Assembly: GCA_008632985.1 (NCBI GenBank)
Contig: QPGO01000112.1
Span: 248,001 to 276,501, forward strand
Direction: 5' to 3'
From: Psammoneis japonica
Lineage: Eukaryota
DNA length: 28,501 nucleotides
Shown: one piece after another, positions 9,689 to 28,501 of the stretch
How the letters are laid out: each line of letters begins with the position of its first letter
Position numbering within the stretch: position 1 is the stretch's first letter
Notes under the pieces: model-generated
The model's input: the letters and a program-made list of their open reading frames with translations, nothing else
Database searches by the model: none
What the model was told of the DNA's origin: nothing
Position numbers and translations under genes: made by a program

Positions 9689-10401
9689 TCACCAGAATAC
9701 GAAAAAGGTACCCACTGCTGCTAATGCACTTTTTCAAAATGTAAAAGTAGAAGAAATAAAAACCGTACATATCTTGTCGTGCTCAAGCTCTACTAGTAGA
9801 GAGTGAGAGTACCTTAGGTTGACTTCTACTCTAGTAGAGCTACTACTCTAAGAGTAGGGCCCTACTAGAGTAGAGAGCAAACACAAAGCTACCATTGAGT
9901 TATGGGAGTCGATCGAAGGCAATAGACCATGACGTCAAAGCATGGTCGGTCGGTCGTACAAAATTTACGTTGAAATCAGGTAAAATTTGGCGGGAGTCCA
10001 AAATTCCAAAATTCCTCATCGCCACCGCCGCGCCACCCAACGCAATGCATGTGGCATGTGCTCTCTCTTAGCTAGTAGAAGGTAGAAGTACTCTAGTAGA
10101 GAGTCGGTTCGTGCGTATTGGATGTTGCAAGAGAAGTTGATCGAGGGATCGATAGAAAAAGAAACGTTTTTAGGACGGTAAGGATGTAGTATGTAGTGGT
10201 GCTGTTGTTCGTTTGGTCATGAAGCGGTTGTGTTTTTACAGAGAACCACGATTACTTGTCTCACAATCTCAAATCGTCCGTCATCTCAACCCGAATGCTG
10301 CCGAATTCAAAGAACATTTATGGCCGAGGGAGTTCTGTGCTTGCTATTACGAATTAAGTTGAGGTGCCTCAATAAGTTAGAGTTGCAGTGCTTTTGAAAA
10401 A

Positions 10402-12320
10402 ATGAAACGTCGCATTTTCCTTTGGGTGGTGCATGCTGCTTCATTCGCTGTACTTGATGCGGGCAGACCAGTATTTTCCGATGCTCAGTCAGAGAAGGTA
10501 TGAGATAAGAGCCACTTTTTGACACTATGATTGCTGCTCTGAGGACTTCTGATGAATTTGAAATTCGTCTCTTTGCTTTTTTCGTTGTCCCGTTTGCAGA
10601 TGAAAGTGCCAGGTCGGCGCCGACAAGACGAGTTGATTTGCCCAAATGATATTTCTGAGGTATTTCAAAGTCAGCCATCTATCATTGCTACCCAGACGTT
10701 CTGCGAGACGGATGGGGATTGCAGCTCCGTTGAACCAGACGATGGAGCTGAACCATGTTGTTTACATCCCTACTGGTACGTATGATGATTGCTCGTTATT
10801 TGATTGCCGTATGGCTTCGTCTTTACGTCTTTGTCTATTCTATATTCATTTTTCGTTGTAGTATTTGTGCCAGTAGCATGCTTGATCCACCGGCTTGCGT
10901 GGGCTCTGGCTCTTCACCGGCCACACCTGCACCTTCACCAGACCCAACGAATCCTCCGACGATTTCACCACGTTGCAGCTCACACCTGAACCTACTTCTC
11001 CAAGTCCAACTCAGCTCCCAACTACACTGCAACCTTCACCAAGTCCAACTCAGCCCCCGTCTACACTGCAACCTTCACCAAGTCCAACTCAACTCCCAAC
11101 CACACTTCCACCAACGCACACACCCACATCTGGACCTACACAAAGGCCGACGGAGCTCCCAACCACGCTTTCGCCGACATTGCTTCCTACCGAACGGGAG
11201 ACTCAAGCGCCTACCACACCACAGCCCACACTTGCAGAGGTTCCTCCCACACAGATACCGACAAATGTTCCAACAGCTACAACCCCATCCCCAACTACAC
11301 TTGCTCCAACGGGACTTCCCACAGTATCACCAACCATGGAACCGACGCCAGATCTTACAGCAGATCCCACCGCGAACCCCGCTCGTCGTCCTACACCGGG
11401 TCCTAGTGAGCCTGTCCCAGAGTCGCCTTCTCGAGCGCCCGAGTTCAACAATGAAACCCAAGCACCTACCATAGATCCAGCAGCAACGGCCCCTCCTACT
11501 CCGCCGCTTGTTGTAGTTATCCCATCAGTTGAGCTATCTGAAATGTCGCTCTATCTTCGCACGTCCGCAAGTCCGTCCAAGGCAAAAAGCCTTCAGAGAT
11601 CTACGGACAAGGAGCCTTTCTCAATTATGCATAGGTTCCTCCTCACAAAATACGACCAAACTCTAAACAGAGATCAACCTGTAGTGGATCTTGAATTGTT
11701 GTTGGAGAATGTACAGCAAGTTGGAAATCCCATTGTACTTGCATATCGATTTTTGGGAACCGTGTTTTTCGACCCCAGTGTTGCAAATCTACCGTCCACG
11801 ACACAATTGAACCGCATAACTTCAGAGGCATTGGAAAGTGAAGAGTTTCTAAAGGAATTACAAAACGCAAATGATCCCATTTTGGCACAAACAATGCAAG
11901 CGACGGTACAGGTGGAAAATGTCGAAGCAACCGTCGCGCCAACAAAGGCTCCCCAGAGGATGAGTCTGGCGTGGAAGCTTGGGTTATTATTTTGATTGTT
12001 TTGGCCGTGGTTGTAATGGTATCTGTGACAGGATTGTTGTACTTCCGATTTCGAAGAAAAAGAGAAGAGGTTTACTCCGGAGTTGAAAGTACGCCGGTGG
12101 AAGACATGAGTGTCCCGTTGGGACTTCTGGAACAGGACGCTGGTATCGAAAGCGAGCGAATAACTTCGAAGCCAGTCCCGTAGAAAAAGATGAGCTGCGG
12201 TTAGACTCTTCATATGATGAATCCGACACTCCTGGTCCAGACAAAAACGCGTCTCACGACATTTTCCGGCCTCCGCGTGGCAAATCCTCTGTGGATGCCG
12301 GTAGCGGAACGTTTTCATAA
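10402..12320 (+). CDS. Single-pass mucin-like surface protein 2 (paralog): signal peptide, small Cys-rich domain (C..C...CCLHPYCIC...C), PT stalk, SEA-like domain, TM; 2 introns, ~3 apparent 1-nt frameshifts
   Basis: Exon 1 10402-10497 (MKRRIFLWVVHAASFAVLDA..), intron 10498-10599 (GTATGA..TTGCAG), exon 2 10600-10775, intron 10776-10861 (GTACGT..TTGTAG), exon 3 from 10862. Frameshifts near 10968, 11951-11954 and ~12155. Juxtamembrane domain is clearly homologous to gene 1 (LGTVFFxPxVxNLPSTxQL..IT.EALESEEFL). TM AWVIILIVLAVVVMVSVTGLLYF. The stop is TAA 12318-12320 if the last frameshift is real, otherwise 12183. Confidence 0.75.
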
Positions 12321-12907
12321 GTCATAAGGTTCTTTTGCCTTGTTACTTCTATTGGTTCATGTTACGACACTTGACGTCCATTGAGAATAATGCGCGAGGA
12401 TTCGTTTCAGTGTATACTATTCGGAGCGCCCTCTACTACGGTACAGTGTAGTAGGTTCCTCTCTCTACAGCAGTAGTTGTCGCTGTCGCGCGACATACCT
12501 TTTATGCAACGGGAAGTAGGGCCCTATGAAAAAAGTGAGGAGGTCAATCGTGACTTGATTTCATGTTGGTCGTGACTGAAATTCAAAACGATACGCAACA
12601 ACACAGGTGAAATGTACTTCTAATAACGGAATAAAAGATATTGAATTTCCAAAATTAAATGTTAAATCCAAATATGATTATGATTATTGATTTCGTTGGC
12701 CTAAACAAAGCCGCGAACAACGATTCAAAAATCAATGAAAATTATTCAGGCATGACTAACAAATATAACCAATCATTTTCGGTGGCACGACCTCATTTGC
12801 TGTTGCTGTTGTTGTTGCTTTCACAATCATCAAAAAATCAAGGTCCGAACATGTCAAATCAAGGTCTTGTTGCTGTTGTCGATACCATGTTGAGTAGATC
12901 GAAGAAT

Positions 12908-15896
12908 ATGAATCAAATGTTACGCTTTTCCTTAGAGTATTACTGATTGGAGTCGTTATTCGTCAAGCAGAAGCAACATGCAAAGCCAATCGCGCAGGAA
13001 AAGGAAAATACAAGCACAATTGCATCTTTCCTTTCACTTATCGAGACGTCACCTACACCAGTTGCACAACTGCTCGAAATGGAGGAATTCCTTGGTGCCG
13101 TATTGATGCAAATCGTGCTGATTGGGGCGAATGCGAGGACTCACCCGAGTGTTCTGGCGATACACCGACTCCTCCTCATACAACACAAGATCCGACGCAG
13201 AGCGACCCAGCACTACCAGAAACGGACGAAACTACAGCTGCTCCAGTTCCTAATACGCAATCGCCAACTCCAGAACCCTCGGTCGGTACTCCAGGTGAGA
13301 GCAATTAGGTGAATTATGCGGTATTTAAGCTTTATTGATCGTTTCTCACCAATACACATCTGTTTTTTTTTTTCCGCTACGAAATCAGCTCCAGTTACTC
13401 CGCCGCCTTCACCTACGCCAGGTAAGGAAAAATACCTTATTGTTTCTGTTGTTATTGCTGCTGATGCTAGATGCTAGATTTTCAAGTCGTACATTCTCAA
13501 TGTTGCTTCTTCTCTAACAATTATTCTTGTGCATGAAATCCACAGCAACCGAGCCGCCTACTACTCCTATCCCTACCAATCCAACGTGTTTCGCAGATGA
13601 ACGCGGAAATGGTGTCTTCAACAAAGTTTGTCTGTTTCCATTTCGTTACCAAGGAGTGACTTACAACAAATGTGTAACAGCGGGTCAAAGGGTTCCGTGG
13701 TGTGCCGTTTCAAATGATGGGGCGTGGGGCAATTGCCAAACCTCCGATGCGTGCCCTATTGAGATCACAGCCTCGCCCACTGCTGGTCCTTTGGATCAAT
13801 CGCCTTCTACAGCTGCGCCGCAAACACCGTCGCCCACTTCTTCCTCCACACTTAAGTCGACTGGTCCACCTACGACGTCGCCACAGCCAACAGCTATACC
13901 GACCGAGAATCCCACTCGACGACCCACTAGAAATCCAACTCGACGACCCACTAGAAATCCGACGCGAAATCCGACCCGCCGACCATCCCAAGCTCCATCC
14001 ATGGCACCTTCCGAGATGCCAATCTCGTTTCAACCCTCGACTACACCAACAGAGCCCAGCACAGCAACGCCAACAATATCAATGTCAATCCCGCAGCCTA
14101 CTGTGGCTCCGACTCTGCAACCCACTCGGCCGCCGTTTACTTCTACCTTGCCACCGGCTACGAACGGACTCACCTCTGTAGTGCTTTCGCCAATGGTGCT
14201 CAAGTTGGTTGTAGAACCAGCAAAGAGTAGAGGTCAGCGTTTTTTATCCGAGCGGGAAGATGAACTGGTGGAATTCGTCAAGATTTATCTACTCGATACA
14301 TTCTCTATGCGACTGCCTTCAAACAAACAAGCGTCAGAGATGCAGTTGGTTGTCATTGACGATTCGCTGCGAAACAACGATACCCTTTGGGAAACAAGAA
14401 TGCTCGGAAGTGTATATTTCGGTGCAGCCGTGACAAACCCACCGTCACAACGAGAATTGAACGGCTTGACAGAGGAGGCACTGGAGAGCGAGGAATTTTT
14501 GAGTCTCCTAGCAACAGCCAACGATCCAGTCTTGTCGAGTTCCAAGCAAGTGTCACTCGATTTCACAGATATCGACGGTAATGTACAGCAAGATCCAAGC
14601 GATACCGGTGGCGGAAGTAACAATACCGTGATTGCCGTTGTAGCATCCGTCTGTGCCGTGGTGGTTTGCTTGTTGATTTTGGGCTTTGTCTTTGTGTTGT
14701 ATCCCCGCATGAAACGACGACAACAACTACGAAAGCGAGCCAAGGCCAGTACTCCGCTGACCGCAGCTGCCGACGGATTCTTTGAACTTCCATGTGATTT
14801 GGACATGTCGTATCAGAACGGTGTCAGCGGCAGTGAAGTCGAATCCACGTATACCTATGGAAAGGAAGATGAGTCAGTGTCTATTGCTGCTTCCAATTAT
14901 GCAGCATCCATGGTGGGTCCTCCTAGCTTGGCAGGGTCCTTTATGATTCCAGAGAGTGACTCAGAGGTGGACGAAACACCAAATAAACAAAAGGATTTTG
15001 TTGCCTTTGATTTTGATAACAATGGAGCAATCAAGACCACAACGCAGAATGACGATACGGATGAGTCTGATTGCGAGCCATCGCCGTTTGTAGGTCGGAA
15101 GCTATATGATGCTAACAATGCGACCCAAGAAAAAGACGCTCCTCATGACGATCTCGACGCAAGCAAAGGTAATGGATTGTTCAACAAGGTAGAGGAGAAC
15201 TCGTCGTTGTCGCGATCCATTCAAGAAAGTCCCATAATGCAGCCGTCAGACGCCGACGTTACCCCGAGAACAAAGCAGCGTCTCGCCGAAGACACACGCC
15301 ATTGGAAAGAAAAGTGCGGTATCGACGACACTCCCATTCGCACCGATGATTTGTATTCACCAAGCAAGTTGAATATGTCTGACGATGACGATGATGATCT
15401 GCCTTCAAGCACGTTGGACCCTAGTGGTGATCCTCATTCGCCAAGTGAGACTAACGCTTACGGAGATCTTCGTTCCCCGAAGTTGAATACATCGGGTGAC
15501 CATCTTTCCCCGAAGACGCACGTTTCCGGAGAAACTCATTCGCCACTTGAAATGAATACATCGGGCGATCATCTTTCCCCGAAGACGAACGTTTCCGGAG
15601 AAATTCATTCGCCACGTGAGATGAATACAACGGGTGACCATCTTTCCCCGAAGACGAACGTTTCCGGAGAAACTCATTCGCCTAGTGAGATGAATACATC
15701 TGGTGACCATCTTTCCCCGAAGACGAACGTTCCCGGAGAAACTCATTCACCACGTGAGATGAATACATCTGGTGATAATTGTTCTCCAACTAAGTTGAAC
15801 GCTTCTGGTGATCATATTTTGCCCAATCAGGTGAATCCACCGGGTGATCATGTTCCGCCAAGTGAGATGGACGCTACTTGTGATGAGATTGTATGA
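12908..15896 (+). CDS. Single-pass mucin-like surface protein 3 (paralog): signal peptide, two FN2 domains, PT stalk, SEA-like domain, TM, long acidic Ser-rich cytoplasmic tail with tandem repeats; 2 introns
   Basis: Exon 1 12908-13294 is in a frame missing from the ORF track: LRVLLIGVVIRQAEA-TCKANRAGKGKYKHNCIFPFTYRDVTYTSCTTARNGGIPWCRIDANRADWGEC. It needs +1 nt in the T run at ~12926-12929 to reach ATG 12908. Intron 13295-13388, 33-nt exon 13389-13421, intron 13422-13545 (GTAAGG..CTAAC..CACAG). Exon 3 is in frame with ORF 13527-15896, carrying the second FN2 (CLFPFRYQGVTYNKCVTAGQRVPWC..WGNC) and TM VIAVVASVCAVVVCLLILGFVFVLY. Confidence 0.85.
15483..15790 (+). repeat. Coding tandem repeat, 69 bp (23 aa, MNTSGDHLSPKTNVSGETHSPxE) x4 plus degenerate flanking copies
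   Basis: (A/T)TGAATACA at 15483, 15552, 15621, 15690 and 15759, exactly 69 bp apart. Confidence 0.92.
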
Positions 15897-16572
15897 ACAA
15901 ATAATGAGGCGCTAGACGAGTCGAACGTATCGAAATACTAATCTAAGATCTACTAGCTAGAGAGTATCATGGTTGTCGTGGACTTATCGACTACAAAACT
16001 GGACCCACTTCGTGTTCCTGCAACCAATAGACAGGATTTGGGATATCTCAGAATCATCAACCATCGACGACGAAAGCTCTTTCACGCATTCAGATGCGAC
16101 TCGAGAATGAGGAAGCCACGCCCACGAAACAATTCAAGATCCAACATCTCCCAGCTTTATCATTTAAAGCCTTAGTAGTCTATGCAGCTCATGCATTTCA
16201 AACGACCTCCTTGAGAGGTGACGTTGAGGAATATAGCTACATAGAGGGCCCTACGACTTCAAGCAACAGATTGAGGAGGTACATGCAGCCCGCTGGGTAC
16301 TGTAGATTTCGAGACAATGCAAGGCCTTGGCGACGAAATCCACGATAACCAAGAGCAAGGAAATGTGTTTGTTTCTGCTACTTTAAGGCCGCTTCTCTCC
16401 CCACGACGAGGAACCGGCTGTAAGCACTTAAGAAACGCTACTAGAGTTGCCCTAGACTCTAGTTCCACAAATAATTCGTAGAAGCCTTGAGGGAAGAGAA
16501 GAAGACTGGCGTATAGCCAAGCACAAGGCTCATTCCCATCGCAAGGGCTCAACCGTGCCACTTGATCAAAAG

Positions 16573-16950
16573 ACTCTGATGACATTGAAAGAACTCCATG
16601 ATGTAGGTATCAAGTCGCCTCCAAAAAAACAGGTGGCATGCTTAACAACACGATGTCGAGGCTCAGCGGCCAGGGGCTTATTGTGTACCCTGACAGCGCA
16701 ACAGTGAGTCTTACTCTAGCCGGCATCGACAAGGCTGGAGGTGATGATCCCGAACAATTGACCGAAGAATATCAGGTATAAATCAGAAAGTCGCTTCAAG
16801 CCTGGAGATCAAGCTTTCGATACTCTTCTTGATGGACGCCTGTACACTCGAAATGAGGTGGTGGCTCAAGTCCAGTTTGGCTGGAAAAGCAAATTTGAGC
16901 CATCCAGTCCCCAGGTTGTCGATCGCAGGCCTCTAAGCTACGCTAATTGA
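16573..16950 (+). pseudogene. Possible decayed gene for a winged-helix-like repeat protein
   Basis: Protein-like fragments across frames: TLMTLKELHDVGIKSPPKKQVA / MSRLSGQGLIVYPDSATVSLTLAG / AFDTLLDGRLYTRNEVVA. These resemble a helix+wing pattern (L...GLI.Y....V.LT..G) that I recall from diatom hypothetical proteins. Interrupted by frameshifts and a stop. Confidence 0.3.
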
Positions 16951-17282
16951 TCATGGTGAGAACTAGGAGAAGTCACTCAAACTATCACCAATCTCGCTTT
17001 CCCGCACGGAGATCGTGTTGTCTAGAAGGAGGTTACACCTCGTTTCCTGTTCGCGGTAAGCGGCCATGGATACTAGAAGTGAGAAGCTTAACAATAGTAA
17101 CAGAAACATACGATGTTTGCTTTACTCACGTCTTAAATGCATTTTTCTTTCTTTTGAGTCCTTATTTATGACTGCGTTCTGTAGCTTCGACGTTAATATC
17201 ATTCTCCTTCGCAAATTCTTTTGATATATTATATCATATTGAGCGATGGGTTTCAAACATCCGCCATGATAATAACTACTGG

Positions 17283-18418
17283 TTACTGGTTGGGACACTC
17301 TTGAGGAACGGATTTCCATCCCCTCGATGTCAAGATTTGTTCCACGCCACTGACATGTGCTAGTCCCATGACTGCGACCATACTACCTAATTGATCGAGA
17401 TTATCAATCCCGTTGGCCATGTATAAATCCCGTTCTGCAACAATAGCGGTATAAAGCTGAGGCGCCAGTTCTTTGAATTCCCGCATTTGCAATTCGATAC
17501 TCTCCTTTGCCTTGCTGGTCTCCACGTATCGAGAAAAGTCTTGTCGAAAGGCGTCATCCTTCAAATCCTCTCGAGTAGGGCTCAACATGGAAGCGTCGTC
17601 TGGCTGCAGTTGAGCCATTCGCTCTTGCCACTCCGAAAAGAAGTTTGGATCCGTCTCGGACAATGCTTCGGTGACTCGCGACAAGGTCATCTTAACGTCA
17701 CGATCGCCAAAGACAATCTTGGAACCAATCTTCTTGGCTTGTTGAATAGCAATAGAAAACTCTTGTGACGACTGAAATCCTGCCTGTTCCATCTTGTCGT
17801 ACATGCCCTTTATATCTTTTTCGACGGATGCGGTTGTTTCCGTCTTGCTCGTTTGGGTATGCGTAGGTTTGGTCTTTGTATTGTCTTGAGGCTGTACAGA
17901 ATCATAGGAAGCTGGCGGTAGGACTGCCAAGAGTCGCCCATCATATCCTGGTACAGTTCCGTCCTTGTTGATGTTGTACATGCCTCGTACCACATTTCTT
18001 ACATTCAACTCCACAAATACAGCGTCCGTGAGAGTTTCTGCTACCAAATCTCCTGCCAAAGCTGCTGAAGCTGGAGAAAGATGATCTGTGCCCAGCAAAA
18101 TCACAGTTCGAGCGTTCTTATGCCATACTGATACACAAGGTCACAAAGTAGAGCTTTTGCTCTTGTAGTGGGCGAAGCTATCGTTGCTGCCCAAGAAGTA
18201 TCTTCTTTTGCAGTCAAAGCAGAAGCTGCCACTACAGAAGCCGCTACCGTAGAGATCCATTCTCGTCGTGTTGAAGTCAAACAAAGGACTGCAGTACAAG
18301 TCCTGGCTCTTCTTGATGGAGTAGAGTCAATTGCTACCCACGCGGATACCGGAATAATCAGGCTTGGAAACACAAACGTCAGCCACAACAACACCCGATG
18401 AAATCCAGCATTTGACAT
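17283..18418 (-). CDS. TraB/PrgY (TraB/Tiki superfamily) domain protein with plastid-targeting presequence and twin-arginine signal; one frameshift at ~18139
   Basis: Motifs ILLGTDHLS, AVFVELN, EFxxAI, FGDRDVxxTLxR, IVAERDLYMA, VAVMGLAHVxGV. ORFs 18101-18418 and 17283-18104 join with +1 nt at GG 18139-18140, giving LCDPCVSVWHKNARTVILLGTDH. N-terminus has a signal peptide ending VSA|W, a transit-like region, then TRREWISTVAASVVAASAL..SWA. Confidence 0.85.
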
Positions 18419-18914
18419 CGCTTCAACGTCCCAGAACCCATTTATCTATCCAAGGGACAAAACTAGAGATGTTTACGGATGCTGTGGGAGCTATTCTGCC
18501 TCCATATGCACATCAACTGAACCAGCGGCCTGCTATCATCGGCCATGGGCCTTGGGCCACATGCATCAAATAATTGATGTGGGTGGGCTTTCGATTGAAA
18601 CGTGTAGATTTCAGTATACTTCTACGTGAAAGAGCTCGTGGATGAAGTGTCAGACAGATGTCACCACGCCTGACAAAAACTCGTGTTATTTACACGGGGG
18701 AAAATGGGCCGTTGTCACGATTGTCACGATCCGGGGTACTAAAAACAATAAATTCGAGCTCGTGTAATCGCATTTGGCAGTGCTCAGGCAGTGCACTCCT
18801 GAATAAATGCTGATATACTGTCACGAATATAGGCAGTTTAAGTGCTGTTGGCGATTGGTCCACTGTCGCTTATTTAGTGGCCCCAGTGGCGTAACATCTC
18901 ACAATTCTAGAACC

Positions 18915-19325
18915 TGTTGATGCTGTTCAACACTCTGTCTTGTCTCACACCCAATTCTCAGCTGTCATGGCAGTGTTTGTTCACTTTGTCAGAGCCAATG
19001 TGCTGTGATGTTCAACGCCTGGAACCGGCATCACGAACGGCACGACGGTGTCGTTGCGATCGATCGATTTTTGCAGCAAGCGCCATGTTGGTCCCATGGT
19101 TGCTTGCGTGATCGCTGAGTCCTTCACACATGTCAATGTTCATGGACATGAACGACATGCTCTTGGAGAAAGAGCTGTGATCCGTCAGACATGACATCAG
19201 TGAACGGAGTGTTTGATCACGTGGATGGAATGTGTTGGCCAAGGCATGTGAACATTCGTGACAAAGACAACACAATGATTTGTGCATTGAGGTCTGTTGT
19301 TTGATCACACACATTTCATTAATCA
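18915..19325 (+). repeat. Putative 5' LTR of the outer element
   Basis: Starts TGTTGATG at about the point where TpA depletion begins and ends CATTAATCA (imperfect inverted termini, TG..CA). The partner LTR is outside the window, so the ends are unverified. Confidence 0.4.
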
Positions 19326-19544
19326 AGGTGAGTTGTCAAACTGTTTGGACACTGTGCATGTGGACACATGTCTGTGCCAATCATTGCTTGGGAGTGATGC
19401 CGCCTGCTCGCGGGTTCGCCAAGTAGAAACCGCCAAATCGGCACGAGAACCACACATTTTTCTCACTTTTCTCCGCTCACACAAGTGGATGCTCACGCGT
19501 CAAAACACAAATGAGCCCGTCAAGGCTTTGCCACTGTCAAGGAC

Positions 19545-20864
19545 TTGGAACAGGTCCCTTTGACAGAAATTGCTGACATGACTGAGGGCATTGTGAAGAG
19601 CTTGGACACCGCCGCTGACCCCCAAGTCCGCTTCCCATGCCTGGTGAATCGCAAGCTCAAGGCACTGCGCGCATGGATTGACTGCCGCAGGGCCCAAAAT
19701 CAAGAGCCGACTGCTGCTCTCTTTGCTGGCGACGTTGTTGGAACATGGACAGCATGTCTCACGGAACTAGAGCAATTCAAGTCTGCAGACTCAGACGACG
19801 AATCGGCTGCCAAAATGGCCGTGGAGCTCAAGAACCTGCATGACTGGCCCACCTTCCAAGAGTTGCTGGAGACCGAACTGCGTCACCACTGCAGTGCCGT
19901 CACCGGCATGCCCCTTGTCTGCCTGATCATGGAGCATGAAGAAAACACCGCTGAAATGTTGGCTGCTGCCTGCACTGCCATTGACGAGGACCTTGTTGCT
20001 GCCACCCGACTTGCAGGAGCTCAGCATGCGCAGGACAGGCAATGCCTGTGTGATCTCTTGAAGAAGTTGGTGACAGGGGGGCCCGGATGGGCTTTTGTCA
20101 AACCTTCCAATCGCAATCGCGATGGTTGTGCTGCTTTCTTTGCACTCAAGAGGCAGGCGGAAGGATCGGCTGCTGCCACTGCCCGAAAGAACTGTGCTTG
20201 CGCACAGATTGCTGCTGCGAAGTACACCGGACGGGGTCGATTCACTTTCGACCAGTGCATTCAGCGCCATCAAAAGGCTCACAACGACTTGTCTGAGCTT
20301 GATGAACCGGTGGCTGAGACCAAGAAGGTCTCTGACTTTCTCAAGGGTGTCTCTGACCCTGGGTTGGAAACTGGCAAGAGTGCAGTGGATGGAGACCCGA
20401 TGAAGCTAGTGGATTTCGAAGCATGCCAGCAGCATGTGAAGACTCTGGCAGAGAATGCTGAGAACCGCAACGCTGACACTCGTGGAATCGCATCCATCCA
20501 ACGCCGCAACAACCAGTGTGGAAACCCTGGCGGAAAGCACCAACCTAAAGAGGACAAGCCCAGGATCCGGGCAGGCCATTGTCCTGTTGAAGAGTGGAGT
20601 GCTCTTGACGGTCCTGAGCGAGAGCAAGTCCAAAAGCTCCGCGATGCCAAGAAAGCCGAAAAGAAACGCAAAGCTGCAGCTGCGTCCTCGGAGGCTGAGT
20701 CGGTTGATGCCAAAACTCGCGCTGTTAAGAAAGTGGCTGTTGCCGAGCCTGATCCACAACCTGCTGATGAACCAAAGGACTCCAAAGAGTCTGACAAACC
20801 TGCCGCCAATGCAGGCACCCAGTTCGGACGTGGCGCACATGAGAAACCTCAGAAGGAGGAATGA
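19545..20864 (+). CDS. gag: Gag of outer copia element (true start further upstream and decayed)
   Basis: CoDi-type Gag features: G.PL.(Y>C)LI, D...L(Y>C)DLLK.LV..GPGWAFVK, RDGxAAFFALKRQAEG, A(Y>C)AQIAAAKY.GR.RFTFDQ(Y>C)I.RHQKAHNDL, KKV.DFLKG, C-terminal AG.QFGR.AH. Only one Tyr in 439 aa. Confidence 0.85.
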   Translation: MEQVPLTEIADMTEGIVKSLDTAADPQVRFPCLVNRKLKALRAWIDCRRAQNQEPTAALFAGDVVGTWTACLTELEQFKSADSDDESAAKMAVELKNLHDWPTFQELLETELRHHCSAVTGMPLVCLIMEHEENTAEMLAAACTAIDEDLVAATRLAGAQHAQDRQCLCDLLKKLVTGGPGWAFVKPSNRNRDGCAAFFALKRQAEGSAAATARKNCACAQIAAAKYTGRGRFTFDQCIQRHQKAHNDLSELDEPVAETKKVSDFLKGVSDPGLETGKSAVDGDPMKLVDFEACQQHVKTLAENAENRNADTRGIASIQRRNNQCGNPGGKHQPKEDKPRIRAGHCPVEEWSALDGPEREQVQKLRDAKKAEKKRKAAAASSEAESVDAKTRAVKKVAVAEPDPQPADEPKDSKESDKPAANAGTQFGRGAHEKPQKEE

Positions 20865-21056
20865 ACAGTTGTGCCAGCACCAAAAGGCACAGAACCGAAT
20901 GTTGCCAAACCTGCTGGCACCACACATTTGTCTGAGTGATTCTCAAAGGACACACATGTCTCTTTGTCATCTGCTGGAAATTCAGATGATGAAGCAACCA
21001 CTGATTTGGACTCACACGCTGACACGTGTGCTGTTGGGTCCAATTTTATAATGTGC
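20865..21056 (+). pseudogene. pol: Outer element pol, N-terminal part (aspartic protease active site), in frame with gag
   Basis: Reads TVVPAPKG..LSE*FSKD..TDLDSHADTCAVGSNFIMC up to the insertion site; internal TGA at 20937-20939. Confidence 0.8.
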
Positions 21057-21332
21057 TGACAGAAAATGAAGGCAAATGGCAAGAATTCAAACAATGACTC
21101 CTTACTGCTGTCTAAATGGCAGATGAGTCTCCGCTCAGAGACCGTCACAGGAGCCGAAAGACGTGTGAGTCGGTATAATCGGGCTACTGTTGTTGTTCTT
21201 GTGAGCCTTGTGGCTCGAAAGCAAACTACATCGCGCGTGAACGCGCGGAACTAAAGCACACAAAACTGTGCACGGTAAACTAAACAGCACGCGATGCTTC
21301 GCACGCACCTAAATCCTGTTCAAATCCTGTCA
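21057..21332 (-). repeat. 3' LTR of inner element (276 bp)
   Basis: Matches 26780-27055 with 10 substitutions and no indels. Confidence 0.97.
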
Positions 21333-24300
21333 CTCCCCAGTTTGCTTGAGGAGCCACAGAAACAGATTCGACTTCGGATGGAATGAAGTTCCAGAACATG
21401 AGGGGGCGGAGAAGGTCCCAGATTTGGGAGCAACCCCAATGCTTGCTGAGAATGTCAGCAGGGTTGCGGGAGCCTTCGATGAAGTGGAACTCAAGGTAAC
21501 CAGAGGCAATTGCCTCACGCACACGGTGGAACGATAGTGCGGTGTGTCGCTTGTGTAACTTGGAGTGCGGGATGGTGGCACTGTCTACAACCGACTTGTT
21601 GTCACCGAACATGTAACTAACGTTACGGATCGGGACGCCAAGGTAGCGCAGGGTGATGCGCAGGTCGATAATCTGCTCAACACAAGTCCTTGCGGCAACA
21701 AATTCAGACCCGTAGGTCGCAGTCTCCACGGTGGCTTGTTTCTTAGAGAACCAATCAGCCGGGAATTTGTTGAGGAAGTGGAGCATTCCCATGACAGAGC
21801 GTCCGGTGAGCATGCAATGGCACAAGTTTGCATCGACGTAGTGGGTGGCAGTGACGAACTTGCCAAGGGGCGGTGGAGCGTCCTTCGGGATCATCTCTTC
21901 TGCTTCACCACACACGGAATGCATCCATTCATAGGCCGGAGCAGGGAGATCCGAATGGTCGGGCTCTTCCGTACGAACGCGGAGAGCACCGTGTCGCATC
22001 TTGGAGAGGCACCCACAGACGCGTTTGGCACGATCCAAGTGGCCTTGACAGGGCGCAGCTCGGAAGCTAGAGAGTGACATGACGGCCGTGGTAATGTCAA
22101 TTCGACCAAGGGACACTGCCCATTGGAGTGAACCAACAAGAGACTGGAACTTGTGAATGCCATCGGGTCCCAGCAGTTCGGAAGTGTCCAGTTCGGGGTG
22201 GTCACCCTTCTCTAGAGGTGACAGGGCGTTGGTGGCAGGTTTCTCCCCAAACAGTCGGGCACAGCTGTCGACCATGCGCTCGATGTACTTGCGCGGAGAC
22301 AGGCACAAGGTTCCATCGGGTTCCCGGGAAAAGTCGCAACCCAGATGGAACTCAATGGGTCCCGCACCCTTGAGCTTGAACTTGTGCTTTTCCGTGAGAG
22401 TGTCGACAAAAGATTGAGGGTCCTTCATGGCAATGGCGAGGTCATCCACATAAACGGCAATGCATTCACAGTGGTCGCCGTTCCTGCGCATCCAAATGTC
22501 AGGTTCGGCGTGGCAGGGGAAGAAGCCTTCAGCTCGCAGGCAGTCGGCGAAGCGCTCGTGCCAGCGGAGACCGGAGCTGCGCAGTCCATACAGTGCCTTG
22601 TGGATGACAAGGATGTGTCCTTCGAGTTTGCCGAACTCGGGTCCAGCTACAATGTAAAGCTTCTCCTTGGTGGTGGCTTCAAGGTGGGCATTGCCAATGT
22701 CGGTGGCCCATGTCTCCAACTCGTTGAGTTCGGCCAGGAAAATCATCAGCCGAAGGCCACGGAGGGAGACCACTCCGGAGTAGACACTGTCGACAGGTAC
22801 GTCCGTGAGGTGCCCGTCGGCTACGAGTCGTGCCTTGTGGCGACCGTCGTGTTTCACATCGTACACTAGGTGCACTCGGATCTTCTTGTGTCCCGCAGGA
22901 GGAGTGGAAGACTTGAAGGGCCCGCAGTCATGGAAGACTTCGTATTCGTTGAGTTGGTCCATCTCGAGATTGGTTGCGTCTCCCCACTTGCGGTTGCCGT
23001 TGCGTTCGTCTAGTGACATGGCGTGTTTGTAGTTCCGGGGAACTTCGCACCCACACTTGCAGCGGGGTGCAGTGCGGAAGGAGCGAAGCTTGGCTTGGTT
23101 GGCCATGCGAAATGGCTTCTTTTGGCGCCTCGCGATGGTGCGGAACCGCTTCCAGCCATCCGTGTCGAGGAGTCCGTTCTCTCGTGCATAGATGGCACAG
23201 GTGACGGGGTCGTCCTTGGCGATGATGGCAAGAGGCTCGGACGTGATCTCCCCACTTTCCCATTCAAGCATGATGTTGTAGCTGGAGCCTTTCCAGGTTG
23301 GGTCGTGAGGCTTCAGAGGTCCTTCGTGTGACACGATGCGTCGAAATTTCCAAACAGTGGTGTCTTCGTCTTCTTGCTCAATGTGATTCATGATGTCATT
23401 GCAGGCAAGGACTTCCTCGTATTCGTCATTGTTGACAGAGCAGACGAACTCAGTGAGCTCGGGATTGCCGTTCACTTTCCATTCGTGGTCTTCGACGGCC
23501 TTGACGATGCGAGCTCTGTGGCGTTGTCCGTCCTCTTGTGGCTGCATGAGGAAGGTGCGTCCAATGATGTCTTGCGGATCGAAAACTGGCATCTTGGGTG
23601 TCCTGATCTCCCCATCAGGAGAGTCGACGGGGTTGTCGTCATGGCGAGATTTGATGATGGGTTCAGGTGGCTCCCCATCAGGAGGATCAAGACGCAGGTT
23701 TCGAGCGGCAGGATCGGGGGTAGCGGAGCGGACGTTGGACCAGCAGAGGATCTTCTGAGTCTCGTCAGATAGAATCTTGAAGGTCATCTGGTGGCCGACG
23801 TGCTCAGCAATGCCAACGAAGCGTCCACGCAACTCACGGGATTCAGACGGCCAATCGGAGTCATCGAGGTGGAAGCACACGGGTTCCCACCAGTGAAAGC
23901 GAAGCAATGGGCTGATGTCCGGGGTGGAGCCAGTGAGAGTCTCGAGGGGCGTGCGCCAGTGGAGACGTGGGGACGCTGCATGGTTGAGCATGAAGCACAC
24001 ACACATGAGCGCCAGCAGCCATGTGTGGGCGGGCGAACCAAAACGATCCATGACAGTGTTCGCCATGCGCTTCACGGTCTGGTGTCGACGCTCGGCAAAG
24101 TTTTGGTGTTGCTGGTGAGGCTCACTTTGCCAGCTAGAGATGAAGAGGGCGCGCAGGATCCCGAGCACTTTGTTGCTGATCTCAACTTGAGCACGGTCGC
24201 TAATGAGTTTGGATGGGGCACCACGTGCACGGATCTGATCCTCGAGTGTGTTGACAAACTCTTTGTCCGTCTTGGTGCCGCAGACGTCAGTGACGGTAGA

Positions 24301-25455
24301 CTCGGTGCCAACAAACAGTTGGGCGCTGGTGTGACCAGAGTCGACAGCCGGGGTGTCGGCATGAACGGTGTCAGTGGCGACAGGCTCGTTGCGGCGGTGC
24401 ACATTAAGGGCGGGGTTGGGTGATTTGCAGGCCTTGCGAAGGTGTGTGCCGGCGGGCATGCGGGCGCACTGTGTGGTGCAGTCAAAAGTACGACGGACCG
24501 CATCGGCAGGTGGGAAGCCAAAGCAAGGCCGAAGAGACTCGAAGGGGGGGTCCTTGGGCTGTACAGTGCGCTCCGGAGGTGGAACGTCATCGCCCTGGGG
24601 GCCAATCGCATGCAGGTGACACTCGTAGAACACGTCGTCGTTCGGAATGAGGTGGTCATCGAGGGCGGACGCGTGATCGGCAGACAAGGAAGCAGACAAG
24701 ATGGTCTCGTTGACAACGACACGATGACGGCAGTTGCCGCATTCGTCAAACAGGTTGGCAGTGGGATCGTCCTGCAGGTCAGAGATCGCGTCGCACCACT
24801 GGTCGTCGTCAGTGACAGAGTGATCGAGGACGGAAGGGTCCCATGTGTCATCACCGGTGAGGATGACATGGGGCAGGGTGTCCCATTCGGCGTCAGTGCA
24901 AGGTCGCATGGCAACACAAGGCAGGCCAGCCTTGATGTCAATGGGGATGACACAGCCATCAGGAGTGGCAATGCGTTGCAAGCCGTTGGGCACCTTGACA
25001 GAGCGATCGTTGACATCCTGTTTGTGCCATTCGAGCTGGCCGCAGGAATGGATGGTCTTGCCCTTTCCCGTGCATGCGTGCTGATGGAGGATGGCGATGA
25101 CGGGACCACGCTGGGTCTCAATGACGGCACCAGCGGTGACAATGGGGATGTCCACCAATTGATGATCGTCAATGCCCTGAACGTCGACTTGGCGAGAGGT
25201 GCATGCAATGACGCGAACGTCGTTGCCAGCAATGCCGCCGTTGGCCCCACGATCGACTAGAGCGCCAGTGCGTGTGGATCGATGAGCAGAGGCAGAGCAA
25301 ATGACATTGTGGTTGTCAACGCGGCGGCAAGTGCGGCCGCCAAGTTCCATGTTATCTGCAGAAGCTGGCGGGGTAGAGGAAGCGGCGGATGGCCCCGGTC
25401 GACTGGCATTGGGGGCTTGGTTAGGAGACAACAGACGTTGCAGATCACCGGGTGG
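21280..25455 (-). CDS. pol: Pol polyprotein of inner element (protease, integrase, reverse transcriptase, RNase H); open but heavily missense-mutated
   Basis: PR LVDRGANGG; IN VATDT..LISDRAQ..SEPHQQHQNFAERR; RT HLVYDVKHDGRHKARLVADG, DIGNA(Y>H)L, ALYGLRSSG, VYVDDL; RH YVDANL, ETATYGSEFVA, FGDNKSV, NPADILSKHW. The first ~225 aa of the 1617-aa track ORF are out-of-frame read-through of the UTR and gag. Confidence 0.95.
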   Translation of the reverse strand, partial: PPGDLQRLLSPNQAPNASRPGPSAASSTPPASADNMELGGRTCRRVDNHNVICSASAHRSTRTGALVDRGANGGIAGNDVRVIACTSRQVDVQGIDDHQLVDIPIVTAGAVIETQRGPVIAILHQHACTGKGKTIHSCGQLEWHKQDVNDRSVKVPNGLQRIATPDGCVIPIDIKAGLPCVAMRPCTDAEWDTLPHVILTGDDTWDPSVLDHSVTDDDQWCDAISDLQDDPTANLFDECGNCRHRVVVNETILSASLSADHASALDDHLIPNDDVFYECHLHAIGPQGDDVPPPERTVQPKDPPFESLRPCFGFPPADAVRRTFDCTTQCARMPAGTHLRKACKSPNPALNVHRRNEPVATDTVHADTPAVDSGHTSAQLFVGTESTVTDVCGTKTDKEFVNTLEDQIRARGAPSKLISDRAQVEISNKVLGILRALFISSWQSEPHQQHQNFAERRHQTVKRMANTVMDRFGSPAHTWLLALMCVCFMLNHAASPRLHWRTPLETLTGSTPDISPLLRFHWWEPVCFHLDDSDWPSESRELRGRFVGIAEHVGHQMTFKILSDETQKILCWSNVRSATPDPAARNLRLDPPDGEPPEPIIKSRHDDNPVDSPDGEIRTPKMPVFDPQDIIGRTFLMQPQEDGQRHRARIVKAVEDHEWKVNGNPELTEFVCSVNNDEYEEVLACNDIMNHIEQEDEDTTVWKFRRIVSHEGPLKPHDPTWKGSSYNIMLEWESGEITSEPLAIIAKDDPVTCAIYARENGLLDTDGWKRFRTIARRQKKPFRMANQAKLRSFRTAPRCKCGCEVPRNYKHAMSLDERNGNRKWGDATNLEMDQLNEYEVFHDCGPFKSSTPPAGHKKIRVHLVYDVKHDGRHKARLVADGHLTDVPVDSVYSGVVSLRGLRLMIFLAELNELETWATDIGNAHLEATTKEKLYIVAGPEFGKLEGHILVIHKALYGLRSSGLRWHERFADCLRAEGFFPCHAEPDIWMRRNGDHCECIAVYVDDLAIAMKDPQSFVDTLTEKHKFKLKGAGPIEFHLGCDFSREPDGTLCLSPRKYIERMVDSCARLFGEKPATNALSPLEKGDHPELDTSELLGPDGIHKFQSLVGSLQWAVSLGRIDITTAVMSLSSFRAAPCQGHLDRAKRVCGCLSKMRHGALRVRTEEPDHSDLPAPAYEWMHSVCGEAEEMIPKDAPPPLGKFVTATHYVDANLCHCMLTGRSVMGMLHFLNKFPADWFSKKQATVETATYGSEFVAARTCVEQIIDLRITLRYLGVPIRNVSYMFGDNKSVVDSATIPHSKLHKRHTALSFHRVREAIASGYLEFHFIEGSRNPADILSKHWGCSQIWDLLRPLMFWNFIPSEVESVSVAPQANWGVTGFEQDLGACEASRAV
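21333..21345 (-). other. Polypurine tract of inner element
   Basis: - strand ..CAAACTGGGGAG directly abuts TGACA of the 3' LTR. Confidence 0.7.
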
Positions 25456-25837
25456 GCAGTGGCTTGCGCTTGGTGAGGTGCGCCAGGATGGGATTGTCCG
25501 AAGTGCAGTCGGGGCTGAGGCGGCAGGCAAGGAACTCGTCATGCGTGAACAAAGAGGAGTCGTTGGCAACGTCAAGACCTTTGTGTGCTTCAACAATGTA
25601 CAGACTGACCAGGGCTGCTGACATGTTCTTGTGACCACGGGGCAAAGGGATTGCATTGGTGCCGTTGTCGCACTCAAGCGAGTCGATTTGGGATGGCATG
25701 AACGTGAACAGTTCCTGATGTGAGTCCGTGCCGTCTTGGGCCAAAGCCAAACGAAGAGGACTCCCAGCACCTTGGGCAAGCACGGTTCCAACCACGTGCT
25801 CGAAACCATCGGTTTGTTGCTGACGAGTGAGAACCAT
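25445..25837 (-). pseudogene. gag: Truncated gag of inner element: N-terminus fused to the pre-protease segment
   Basis: GCCATGG start at 25837: MVLTRQQQTDGFEHVVGTVLAQGAGSPLRLAL...DEFLA(Y>C)RLSPD, then directly SDNPILAHLTKRKPLP. Removing one base at 25454-25456 joins it to PGDLQRLLS of pol. Confidence 0.7.
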
Positions 25838-26765
25838 GGCAGACAAAAAATGGTGTCAGGACAATCAATTCTGGTTGGGAAGCGAAGGTGGACTCGAAAC
25901 TTGGGTGAGAATGGACTTGACTTGAAATGGACTTGACTTGAAATCTTGAACTGTCTTAAAATCAGAAGTCGCCGGGCTTTGTTATCCCGTTCGTTGTCAA
26001 GTGCTAAACTTCCTGTCCGGTCCGTAGAGTTGTGCCGGCACGTCCGAACCCGCAGCCAGCGGCGCTTTGGGTTGCTTGCGAGCGGAGCAGCGGGTTGCAA
26101 ACCCCTGCAGGTAAGCTGACCAGAGGTGGACAAGACCCCCGAACCGTTCTTATTTTATGTCGGTTGGATTTCCCGATCAGGCTGGCCAGTTGACGTAGGC
26201 GTCAGGTGCTGTGGACGAACGAACAAACGCGGGAAAGCACCCTCGCCCCAACGCAGGCTGTGGTCACGGCCACTTGCTCTCACAGTCATCCTCATGGACC
26301 TAGTAGAACTGTAGAGCACCAGTAGTCCGGGGTAGATCAGGTACAATGGACTCGGTGTGCTTGTAGAGTGGTGGCAAAACCGCAGTCTGAAGAGTGGGTA
26401 CAGGTTCTTGGCCGTGAAGATATGTATATATACACATGTCTTCAGCGACGAAGATCCTTGAATATGTAGGGTTCTTGACCGTTAACCGATGAATAGGTAT
26501 GTCAAGGGATGAGGATCAAGGATAGACTTGGACATGACCGTTGAATGCATGTCTTCAGCGATCAAAGGTGGTGCAATCAATCCAGATGTCCAGCGGCAAG
26601 GAGACTTGACGGTGACGTTAACTTCCTGCCGATGCCCTGGTATTGAATGCGCGTAGACTTGCCGATGTATGTAGAATATATACGGAGGTCCACGTAGAAT
26701 TAAAAAATAGCGTCGTTGGTAAATCAACGACGACGATGGCGGTTGCTCAATGGGTTGACAATGAG

Positions 26766-26779
26766 CAAGACTGTTAATC
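26766..26779 (-). other. Primer-binding site complementary to the anticodon arm of tRNA-Asn(GTT)
   Basis: + strand CAAGA-CT-GTT-AA-TC immediately inside the 5' LTR has the geometry of tRNA positions 27-40 with a GTT anticodon. There is no canonical TGG-type PBS. Confidence 0.7.
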
Positions 26780-27055
26780 TGACAGAAAATGAAGGCAAAT
26801 GGCAAGAATTCAAACAATAACTCCTTACTGCTGTCTAAATAGCAGATGAGTCTCCGCTCAGAGACCGTTACAGGAGCCGAAAGACGTGTAAGTCGGTATA
26901 ATCGGGGTACTGTCATTATTCTTGTGAGCCTTGTGGCTCGAAAGCAAACTACATCGCGCGTGAACGCGCGGAACTAAAGCACACAAAACTGTGCACGGTA
27001 AACTAAACAGCGCGCGATGCTTCGCGCGCACCTAAATCCTGTTCAAATCCTGTCA
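26780..27055 (-). repeat. 5' LTR of inner element (276 bp)
   Basis: Matches 21057-21332 and keeps TpA/CpG at most variable sites. Confidence 0.97.
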
Positions 27056-27060
27056 TGTGC

Positions 27061-28501
27061 TCTGATGTCGACAGAACTGTCGTGGTGCACCCTCACTCCA
27101 AAAAGCACGCACCAATGGAAAACATTCCCATTTGCACGGCTGCTGCCGTGTGGGTTGATCCAACTGATGGACAACCACACCTTCCACTGGTCCATGAGGC
27201 CATGTTTTTCGGGGACAAAGATGACTGACACTCTCCCATGCCCCAACCAACTGCGAGCGAATGGACTGACAGTCCACGATGCCCCTTGCCAGTTTGATTC
27301 GACTGGCACACACTCCATTTCTTTCCCTGACTCGAAGATCAGGATGCCATTGCGAGTGCGAGGTGTTGCTTCAGTCTTTGATTCACACAAGCCAACAAAG
27401 GAGGATCTGGAGAACCTCCCCCAGCTGGAGCTCACATCACCCCTGAGATGGGAGCCTTCCACTGATGCCCTGGTGCAAAAGGAGGAAGCGCATGTGTGTG
27501 CCAGTGTGCGCCAAGGATCAGCAAAGTCTGATGGACAGTCGACGACGATGAATGCAACCAGGTGTGTCGCTTCCATTCATTCATGCCAAACGTCCCATCA
27601 TGACGAGAATGTCATCATGGATGCCAATGACGACGATTCTCTGCATCGCCGCCTGGTTGCTCAGGCAAATGTCTCCCACAACGACACTGAGGGAGATGGG
27701 CTGCACGACCGGCATGACCCAGATGTCCACCCAGATTGTGCCGAGCAGAAACGGGTGCATGCACTGTCGACCTCGAGTCGTGCATCGACCATCACACCTG
27801 AGATGCTTTCTAAAAGGTGGAACATTGGCCTGACGGCCACTGAGAACACCCTTAGAGTGACGACCCAGGCAGGGGTCCACAATGTCTGCACACCATCCGA
27901 ATGGAAAGTCCAGAAGAAAGCCCCTTGGCTTGAGTTCCCTGCTGTCAAGGGATGCTTCTACTCTGGCCAGATGTTTTCGAAGGTTAAATCGACACATGGC
28001 AAGATGGGAGGAAGCGCATTTGCCAATGGAAGAGGGTGTGACAGGTTCCATCCTTGGAAGAGGAAACAGGACCACCCAAATGCCGTCATGTCATTCGTGC
28101 ATGACACTGGCGCACCGCAAGTCCTTGTGTCAGATGGCATGCCGGAAATGGCGGAAGGCCAGACCAAAGAGATTTGCAAGAAATGCAGGATGCACCAGGA
28201 GGTGTCCACCCCGCACAGCCCCTGGCAGAACCCAGCCGAGGCATCCATTCGTGAGTTGAAGAAGAGAGTCCGCATGACTCTGCCCCAGACTGGTGCTCAC
28301 AGGCAACTTTGGTCCTGCAGTGCCAAATGGACATGTGACATCCGACACGTGATTGCGAGTGGCACATCGGATGTGGGAGGACGAGTCCCAGAAGAGGAGG
28401 TGACAGGTTCAACACCTGACATCTTGTCCCTCTCTCTCTTTGATTGGCATCAACCTGTCTGTTGCTGCATGCCTGTGGTGGAGTTCCCACACAAGAAGAA
28501 G
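27061..28501 (+). pseudogene. pol: Outer element pol continued: rest of protease, GAG-pre-integrase region and integrase core; runs off the window
   Basis: SDVDRTVVVHP..IPICTAAAVWVDPTDGQPH..HEAMFFGDK, then a +1 frameshift at ~27217-27220. The frame from 27221 is open to the window end (so absent from the ORF track): CPNQLRANGLTVHD..LELTSPLRWEP..ITPEMLSKRWNIGL..TLRVTTQAG..GAPQVLVSDG..PHSPWQNPAEASIRELK..TGSTPDI..FDWHQPV. Confidence 0.9.

Follow-up and report, generated by a model that had tools for sequence, protein, structure and literature searches.

Why is the dinucleotide TpA almost absent from the repeats of a genomic region whose host genes contain it in abundance? This question is raised by a 28,501-nucleotide stretch of contig QPGO01000112.1 from Psammoneis japonica (positions 248,001 to 276,501 of the forward strand), which is called the window in the following and is numbered from its first base. 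It begins with an unclassified repeat (block 1, positions 1 to about 6950), continues with host genes and intergenic DNA (7300–18900) and ends with two nested retrotransposons of the Ty1/copia type (18916–28501), an outer element interrupted by an inner one. According to the sequence comparisons described here, the repeat DNA is probably subject to a context-specific transition hypermutation, which turns 5′-TpA-3′ into TpG or CpA and spares the adjacent host genes. The loss is confined to repeats, stops at the ends of the elements and took place in part in the chromosome after integration. It runs beside the decay of CpG, but faster. The original prediction, made from the letters alone, had postulated a mutator of TpA apart from repeat-induced point mutation (RIP) and CpG decay, and this core of it is supported.

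The depletion was quantified by observed/expected (O/E) values. In block 1 the TA O/E is 0.02, with 11 TpA observed against 446 expected from base composition. The outer element has a TA O/E of 0.08 in its left part (18915–21051) and of 0.05 in its right part (27061–28501, four TpA). For the inner element it is 0.23 in the open reading frame (ORF, 21333–26150) and 0.84 in the leader with the 5′ long terminal repeat (LTR, 26156–27055). The host genes and intergenic DNA, which serve as internal control, show 0.64 (523 TpA). Compared to this level, the depletion has a Poisson P of 3e-105 for block 1, of 2e-22 and about 3e-16 for the two outer parts and of 2e-18 for the inner ORF. When non-overlapping segments of 500 bases were considered, a TA O/E of at most 0.15 was found for all 14 segments of 1–7000, all four of 19001–21000 and all three of 27001–28500, whereas none of the 45 segments of the gene region falls below 0.2. 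The original prediction had counted by eye about five TpA in the outer gag, about four in 27061–28501 and about a dozen in 1–6950, besides abundant TpA in the genes. The exact counts are 5, 4, and 11, with those of the outer gag ORF (19515–20864) located at 19768, 20223, 20407, 20546, and 20726, and the abundance in the genes was confirmed as well.

TpG and CpA are enriched in the TpA-depleted parts, where their O/E values reach 1.4–1.8. Block 1 has 1.81 for both of them (742 TG and 833 CA). In 18915–28501, TA is the only depleted dinucleotide, and TG and CA are the only enriched ones. The TpA/ApT index is 0.036–0.048 in the erased blocks (0.036 in block 1) versus 0.70 in the genes, and the (CpA+TpG)/(ApC+GpT) index is 1.97 in block 1 versus 1.15 in the genes. 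As a baseline, 80 related copia loci from metagenomes were used, which have TA O/E values of 0.50–1.15 and in which none of 1576 segments of 500 bases is below 0.2. Both peptide patterns of this locus scan include Tyr, and protein searches favor intact copies, so that the scan is biased against mutated copies and gives a baseline rather than evidence of absence elsewhere. Likewise, a combined loss of Tyr and gain of Cys was not found in at least 120 inner or at least 150 outer homologous proteins, which were obtained by a search favoring intact copies.

The direction and specificity of the change were derived from homologues. The inner polyprotein was aligned with 60 homologues of 57–68% identity (at least 120 in this range are listed), and a column was regarded as conserved if at least 80% of the homologues agree. 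Altogether 75 of the 690 conserved columns are altered in the inner polyprotein. Among the 35 conserved Tyr columns this applies to 22 (14 Cys, 5 His, 2 Phe, and 1 Thr), whereas the other conserved residues are altered in 0–19% of their columns. When each of the 60 homologues was treated alike, only 0–3 replacements of Tyr by Cys or His were obtained among 32–38 Tyr columns. Among 37 conserved Lys columns only three read Arg, and among 20 conserved Asn columns none reads Ser. Between residues 286 and 918 (window 25299–23403) all 12 conserved Tyr columns are replaced, nine by Cys and three by His. The part comprising reverse transcriptase and RNase H is about half converted and retains several invariant Tyr, e.g., in YVDD.

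The peptides in which Cys and His had been noted at expected Tyr positions are all located in the inner ORF. At these places the consensus of 20 homologues reads IMHQYAYTGKG, RPYTD, DEFGNY, TTQYAR, DTVYSD, ERRYQT, PRYKYGFEVP, GNAYLEA, YEYIAVYVDD, RIYGYL, and WGYxQ, with Tyr, in two places Phe, opposite the Cys or His of the window. The objection that Cys and His might already belong to the family consensus is answered in part: other families have Tyr, which speaks for a mutator, but the progenitor copy of the inner family may already have been converted.

The same comparison was performed at the nucleotide level. For this, the codons of the 80 loci were threaded along the inner ORF, and a dinucleotide was regarded as conserved if it was common to 70% or more of a minimum of 20 loci. 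TA is conserved at 32 places, of which the inner ORF keeps 12, while 13 read TG, 5 CA, and 2 TT. The remaining 15 conserved dinucleotides are kept at 78–100%, for example AA at 86%, AT at 80%, and CG at 91%. Conserved AA changed to AG in 2 of 57 cases versus 18 of 32 for TA to TG or CA. The change is specific to TpA and its direction is from TA to TG or CA. Since both products are present, both strands are affected. An enrichment of A>G at TpA over other contexts, which had been proposed as a check, is therefore borne out. The bases flanking 25 converted and 13 retained Tyr codons, a small sample inspected by eye, show no obvious preference.

A consequence of this direction is that no in-frame stop codon can be created. 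TAA changed to TGA is still a stop, TAG changed to TGG as well as TAA or TAG changed to CAA or CAG remove one, and no other codon position makes one, so that the frames of dead elements remain open over long distances, with many Cys and His in the place of former Tyr. The inner frame of 1624 codons has survived the loss of over half of its conserved Tyr for this reason, as had been anticipated by the original prediction with its missense damage free of stops. In block 1, only 8 TAA and TAG trinucleotides were counted versus 156 TGA, because TAA keeps a stop as TGA while TAG as TGG, or either as CAA or CAG, is lost as a stop.

Several established processes were considered as the cause and rejected. 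Fungal RIP is similar in being a dinucleotide-specific transition hypermutation of repeats, which skews composition indices and disables transposons. It turns CpA into TpA and gives rise to stop codons, whereas here the direction is the opposite, TpA is destroyed, stops cannot arise and the indices are inverted. It was rejected on the basis of the lowered TpA/ApT index, the polarity from TA to TG or CA and the open frame of 1624 codons. The decay of CpG by deamination of 5-methylcytosine also ends in TpG and CpA, marks silenced repeats and co-occurs here, but its C>T changes are incapable of removing TpA. As sole cause it was rejected, since the inner ORF has a CG O/E of 0.90 versus a TA O/E of 0.23, and conserved CG was kept at 91% versus 38% for TA. 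The WA>WG spectrum of Pol-eta, known from phase 2 of somatic hypermutation, consists of A>G transitions with a preference for a 5′ T and had been named in the original prediction as a candidate. This candidate was dropped, as ApA should be hit too, yet AA is not depleted in the window (O/E 1.1–1.24) and became AG only in the two cases mentioned above. Finally, GC-biased gene conversion or a general drive from AT to GC was rejected because the AT>GC change is limited to TpA. The claim that A>G occurs at TpA on both strands, apart from RIP and 5-methylcytosine deamination, thus holds by the out-group polarity as well as by the LTR pair and the repeat copies described in the following.

The inner element occupies 21057–27055 on the minus strand within the outer one. 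It is identified as Ty1/copia by LTRs with TG..CA ends, a target-site duplication TGTGC (21052–21056 and 27056–27060) and an RVT_2 domain after the integrase. The polyprotein frame extends over 21280–26154 on the minus strand, with RVT_2 at residues 1085–1297 (E=7.5e-29), and the start of the homologues maps near 25837. The 3′ LTR has a length of 276 bases (21057–21332, minus strand) and contains 10 TA. The 5′ LTR (26780–27055) contains 15 TA and belongs to the segment of leader and LTR (25957–27055, minus strand) in which TpA is untouched.

The two inner LTRs are 96% alike and differ at 10 of 276 positions. Seven of these lie in six TpA sites, two are CpG>CpA changes in the 3′ LTR and one is a transversion, which is private to the 5′ LTR, as the read contigs carry the other base. 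At the TpA sites, TA in the 5′ LTR is found opposite TG (four sites) or CA (one site) in the 3′ LTR. The sixth site reads TCA in one LTR and TTG in its partner, as would be expected of an ancestral TTA that was hit on opposite strands in each of the two. Since insertion, one LTR would thus have received six hits at TpA and the other one. Because both LTRs are copied from one template at integration, their differences at TpA arose after integration, at the DNA level.

Furthermore, independent conversion can be followed between the copies of block 1, in which TpA and CpG are both almost erased. About five tandem units of about 196 bases are located at 110–1011 on the plus strand and were aligned unit by unit. 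In this alignment, CA opposite TG is the most common double difference, with 49 of 272 pairwise cases. Two copies of a unit of about 2 kb (about 2088–4130 and 4200–5900, plus strand) are 76% alike and both free of TA. Here, the alternation of CA and TG accounts for 37 of 150 adjacent double differences, and the next class for 5. This alternation indicates ancestral TA or CG sites which were resolved independently in each copy. A third, partial copy is located at 6747–7270 on the plus strand and crosses the edge of the erased block. It keeps TA and CG in its outer 200–300 bases (6975–7270), which adjoin the first host gene, while the rest is erased. At TA sites of the third copy, copy A reads TG or CA in 7 of 10 cases, and at its CG sites in 11 of 13. 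TG and CA of the third copy are retained in copy A at 30 of 40 and 30 of 39 sites. The borders of the two depletions differ at this edge, as CpG recovers from about 6500–6940 and TpA only from 7087. Among 15 ORFs of block 1, none has a Pfam domain above threshold. The idea that the mutation is confined to transposon DNA therefore stands as far as repeats in general and the sharp borders of the elements are concerned, but block 1 is not a demonstrated transposon.

The outer Ty1/copia-like element lies on the plus strand and is divided by the insertion into a left part (18916–21056), which starts with a putative LTR (TGTTG at 18916) and includes the gag-like ORF, and a right part (27061–28501) with a protease/integrase frame that runs off the window. 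The match to the rve domain in the right part is weak (E=0.029), and the second LTR and the right end lie beyond the window. Of three scanned homologues of 1359–1365 residues, two (P0139 and P0142) carry an RVT_2 domain above the Pfam cutoff 3′ of the matching part, while P0157 is below it. The integrase fragment of 500 residues contains 1 Tyr, 20 Cys, and 28 His, compared to averages of 3.9% Tyr and 0.9% Cys in 120 listed homologues of the inner family. Opposite the 16 Tyr of the closest listed homologue (45% identity), the window has 6 Cys, 6 His, and a single Tyr. Among four conserved Tyr columns three are altered, compared to 6 of 262 in pooled controls. In addition, 4 of 15 conserved Arg columns are now His, Trp, or Gln, which shows that CpG decay contributes to the load of Cys and His in the outer element.

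The borders of the depletion coincide with those of the elements. On the left side, TA is dense up to 18908, eight bases outside the outer element, and nearly absent from 18916 onward. At the right junction (27055/27056), the last TA of the inner LTR is found at 27033, and the outer element that follows is free of TA until 27811. This sharp switch implies either that the outer element was erased before the inner one arrived or that the targeting follows the identity of the element. Two of the few TpA left in the outer element (21047–21049) are located 3–9 bases from the site of the inner insertion (…TTTTATAATGTGC, ending at the site).

Loss of TpA and loss of CpG rank in the same order, namely block 1, outer element, inner ORF and inner leader, the last being about at the level of the genes. 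The CG O/E is 0.14 in block 1, 0.66 and 0.52 in the left and right outer parts, 0.90 in the inner ORF and 1.06 in the inner leader with the 5′ LTR, with 0.95 in the genes, and across the blocks TpA was lost faster. The shared ranking is consistent with a process linked to silenced, methylated DNA, although it is a correlation only. Of the postulated mutator on silenced repeats, the action on repeats was thus corroborated, while its connection with silencing or methylation of the chromatin is indirect and given by this parallel ranking.

The TpA-poor sequence is present in accurate reads. Contigs from four runs of one study were compared with 20 kb of the window outside block 1. Contigs of run X1 with lengths of up to 2.6 kb show no difference from the window, at a k-mer depth of about 53 in the gene region. 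The same run contains 0.72 of the sampled 31-mers of 15000–24900, and as 60% of this stretch is repeat, at least about half of the repeat words were matched exactly. Overall, 3783 of 14098 contigs are at least 99% alike to the window. Exact contigs at a depth of about 53 arise only from accurate reads, which makes a base-calling artefact at modified bases unlikely. The confirmation in accurate reads that had been called for was obtained in this way, but it is not an independent one from another culture, since the assembly may have been made from these runs.

Relative to unique depth, the summed depth is about 90–160x for the outer and about 1100–2500x for the inner element, so that both belong to abundant families. 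An empty site was detected in the read contigs by a joint from 21050 to 27055, i.e., the outer element without the inner insertion. The inner copy of the window lacks about 340–380 residues of gag around 25504/25505, as homologue residues 1–114 map to 25837–25499 and those near residue 495 to about 25516–25457. In each of the four runs, contigs depart from the window exactly at 25504/25505, and they do so in both directions. Additional sequence is therefore present at this position in other members of the family, and the window copy is a deletion derivative. With most of gag missing it is non-autonomous and could be moved only in trans, if at all.

Several observations weigh against the reading of a TpA hypermutation directed at the repeats. 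In the inner element, the loss of TA covers the coding part but spares the 1.1 kb of leader and 5′ LTR, for which a uniform process in place is insufficient; either inheritance together with selection, or regional targeting, is needed. The products are mildly unequal, as TG exceeds CA when the two copia elements are read in sense orientation (O/E difference 0.21–0.40 versus 0.06 ± 0.10 in the 80 relatives) and Tyr to Cys outnumbers Tyr to His in the inner ORF (18 versus 7, P=0.04). This asymmetry, possibly linked to transcription, would not be expected from a process that acts on DNA with full symmetry. As block 1 has lost CpG together with TpA, its alternation of CA and TG is not assignable to TpA alone. 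Moreover, the read contigs contain only about 365 variable places over the 20 kb when a share of at least 10% of the depth is required (81 A>G, 94 T>C, 66 C>T, 75 G>A, and 43 transversions). This small number suggests that many conversions are common to most copies of the family and were not made in the window copy. Among the 40 best-supported variable places, none of the eight within repeats has a TpA context. In addition, all read data originate from one study, which is possibly the source of the assembly itself, and neither an enzyme nor a targeting factor is in view from the sequence of the window alone.

Action in place on chromosomal DNA is seen for the inner LTR pair and the copies of block 1, whereas the bulk of the conversions in the inner ORF may be inherited. 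Most conversions of the inner family probably come from an already mutated, non-autonomous progenitor. Since the polarity was drawn from other families, such an inheritance does not remove the mutator, but bears on where and when it acted. In the proposed sequence of events, an ancestor of the inner lineage would have been hit in place. The mutated, non-autonomous lineage would still have been mobilized, with selection keeping LTR and leader intact, and a few further hits in place would have followed this insertion.

As mechanism, it is proposed that the adenine in 5′-TpA-3′ is deaminated to hypoxanthine, on one strand or the other, in DNA that carries a mark. Hypoxanthine would pair with C at the next replication and would be read as G. 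The candidate enzyme is a polynucleotide deaminase of the TadA/ADAT2 type, and the natural target of TadA and ADAT2 in tRNA, A34, likewise follows a U (U33). The enzyme might be guided to the repeats by the label, of whatever kind, that identifies them as silent chromatin. TpA is self-complementary, and in the sequence alone A>G looks the same as T>C on the opposite strand.

Deaminases are also the basis of the alternative that the intermediates of retrotransposition are edited instead of the chromosome. TadA and ADAT2/3, ADAR and APOBEC3 resemble the present case in that hypermutation serves as a defense against selfish elements and in that adenosine deaminases produce inosine, read as G, with a preference for a 5′ U or T. 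TadA, ADAT, and ADAR, the latter metazoan, act on RNA, and APOBEC acts on C in single-stranded cDNA, whereas here both strands of chromosomal DNA are changed, partly after integration. RNA editing by ADAR or ADAT which is fixed by reverse transcription was rejected, because TG as well as CA products occur, the LTRs differ at TpA and tandem repeats are affected. A wider form, in which a deaminase edits the genomic RNA of the element (UA>UI, giving TA>TG) and/or its cDNA (TA>CA) and the edits accumulate along transposing lineages in the manner of APOBEC3, is improbable, but it has more in its favor than the readings considered below. It agrees with the high depth of the inner family, with most positions of the window copy matching the bulk contigs, with the concentration of conversions in the coding part beside spared LTR and leader, and with the sense-strand excess of TG and of Cys over His, and the window copy, without most of gag, was mobilized in trans if at all. 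However, LTRs from one template differ mostly at TpA sites, and the tandem and segmental copies of block 1, which were not reverse-transcribed, show the same erasure with independent TG or CA outcomes. The comparable numbers of TG and CA products would require two different substrates, and a like signature in the alga Bigelowiella natans arises in place in integrated DNA viruses, without an RNA stage.

A route via the thymine of TpA, which would be modified (e.g., to 5-hydroxymethyluracil) and yield T>C by mispairing or error-prone repair, gives the same products because of the self-complementarity of TpA, and thymine hypermodification with a preference for TpA occurs in the DNA of dinoflagellates. 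This route is less probable still, since no efficient way from T to a base read as C is known, whereas hypoxanthine is read as G. A sequencing or assembly artefact, in which modified bases of repeats were mis-called at TpA (A as G, T as C) in a long-read assembly, would be compatible with the common origin of all four runs, whose library type is not on record, and with the few places, small indels included, at which even the unique region differs from the read contigs. It is extremely unlikely in view of the contigs without differences, the matched 31-mers and the thousands of nearly identical contigs. The gradation between the nested elements and between the two LTRs is also not what an all-or-none artefact would give. 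Just as little credit is given to compositional selection against UpA or TpA, e.g., by an RNase cutting at UpA, or to an origin from a TpA-poor donor genome. Avoidance of UpA is common in expressed RNA and RNA viruses, and the related elements are somewhat below 1 with their TA O/E of 0.5–1.15, but none of the 80 is near 0.23 or 0.05. Selection should lead to synonymous changes, yet Cys or His has taken the place of invariant Tyr, as in GNAYLEA. The erasure also extends to non-coding repeat DNA (block 1 and the outer LTR), and differences at TpA sites are found between the LTRs of a single insertion.

The proposed hypermutation of TpA has a counterpart, so that the statement of the original prediction that it knew of no description of such a system was overtaken by a preprint of 2026. 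In this work, mutation-accumulation lines of Bigelowiella natans acquired 302 new nuclear mutations, of which 231 were located in two integrated viral regions (Mettrop et al., 2026, bioRxiv 10.64898/2026.01.13.699255). Of these 231, 230 were A>G/T>C and all 230 of them at TpA, with rates in the viral regions of about 1000 times that of the genome and only some lines affected. The targets are integrated DNA of nucleocytoplasmic large DNA viruses and virophages, i.e., single-copy inserts, with a Rho of 0.45. Clusters depleted in TpA and enriched in CpA and TpG were also described, and TpA-poor coding sequences are enriched in domains of reverse transcriptases and DDE endonucleases. The authors nominate a homologue of ADAT2 on structural grounds, draw comparisons with TadA/ADAT, ADAR, and APOBEC3, and describe RIP as C>T (Mettrop et al., 2026).

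Both cases share the restriction to TpA, the products TpG and CpA depending on the strand, and the hit on selfish or foreign DNA beside normal host DNA. The features of the Bigelowiella type visible in sequence, namely substitution type, TpA context, both strands and confinement to repeats, are all present in the window. The TpA frequency of their low-TpA subset of coding sequences (0.0018) is close to that of block 1 (11/6950 = 0.0016). Their host is a chlorarachniophyte (Rhizaria) with single-copy viral inserts, whereas here the host genes are diatom-like, and LTR retrotransposons and a tandem-rich repeat are hit. The Rho of 0.45 contrasts with 0.02–0.08 in the window, which is close to saturation. 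Their evidence is experimental, from mutation-accumulation lines, and ours is comparative; the enzyme is in hand in neither case. A full-text literature search, with most subscription journals beyond its reach, found no report of TpA hypermutation in diatoms. The kind of system has thus been known since 2026, and the window is a new case in a distant lineage, with another target class and a much deeper footprint.

The assignment of the host was examined with the genes of the TpA-normal region. Three tandem paralogous genes (7434–9688, 10886–11995, and 13518–15896) were identified by ORF and domain scan and code for Pro/Thr-rich, mucin-like proteins, two of them with an N-terminal fibronectin type II (fn2) domain. 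All three have a C-terminal module (…EALESEEFL…NDP…) in common, which is followed by a hydrophobic stretch in two. The tail of the third gene (15412–15825) consists of 5–6 in-frame tandem repeats of 69 bases (23 residues; …SGDHLSPKTNVSGETHSP.EMNT…). A gene of the TraB family was also found in this region. Its protein has eight matches with 33–43% identity. Two of these bear the name of an organism, in both cases a diatom (a Thalas… MMETSP entry; Cyclotella cryptica), and no protein of Bigelowiella natans is among the eight, each of which is at most 43% identical. Judged by these matches, the host genes are diatom-like, the host is probably a diatom or a stramenopile close to them, and it is not B. 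natans. In the single-copy genes between 8502 and 18614, read contigs and window disagree at several dozen positions, with small indels and a cluster at 12847–12882, which could be due to allelic or strain variation or to residual assembly error.

A second, phylogenetically distant case would make TpA-specific hypermutation a general phenomenon and not the curiosity of one alga, and with two organisms comparative genomics can begin the search for the enzyme. Such hypermutation also bears on the persistence of transposon families under a mutational defense. The erased repeats form long frames rich in Cys and His with a raised local G+C content, which gene callers, transposon classifiers and CpG or RIP indices will misread. 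Adenine base editors had to be evolved artificially from TadA, and a natural TpA-specific DNA adenine deaminase would be of interest for base editing.

Tentatively, with a little less than an even chance in our judgment, diatom-like stramenopiles and the rhizarian Bigelowiella may share a TpA-directed defense by a DNA adenine deaminase, a mirror image of RIP. It would be either ancient in the Stramenopiles–Alveolata–Rhizaria (SAR) group or repeatedly evolved and would saturate LTR retrotransposons together with the decay of methylated cytosines. If this is true, the defense would leave open but crippled frames, and gag-deleted, non-autonomous lineages could still amplify to thousands of copies while their LTRs and leader escape. 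A comparison of the deaminase repertoires of both organisms would then point to a natural TpA-specific DNA adenine base editor.

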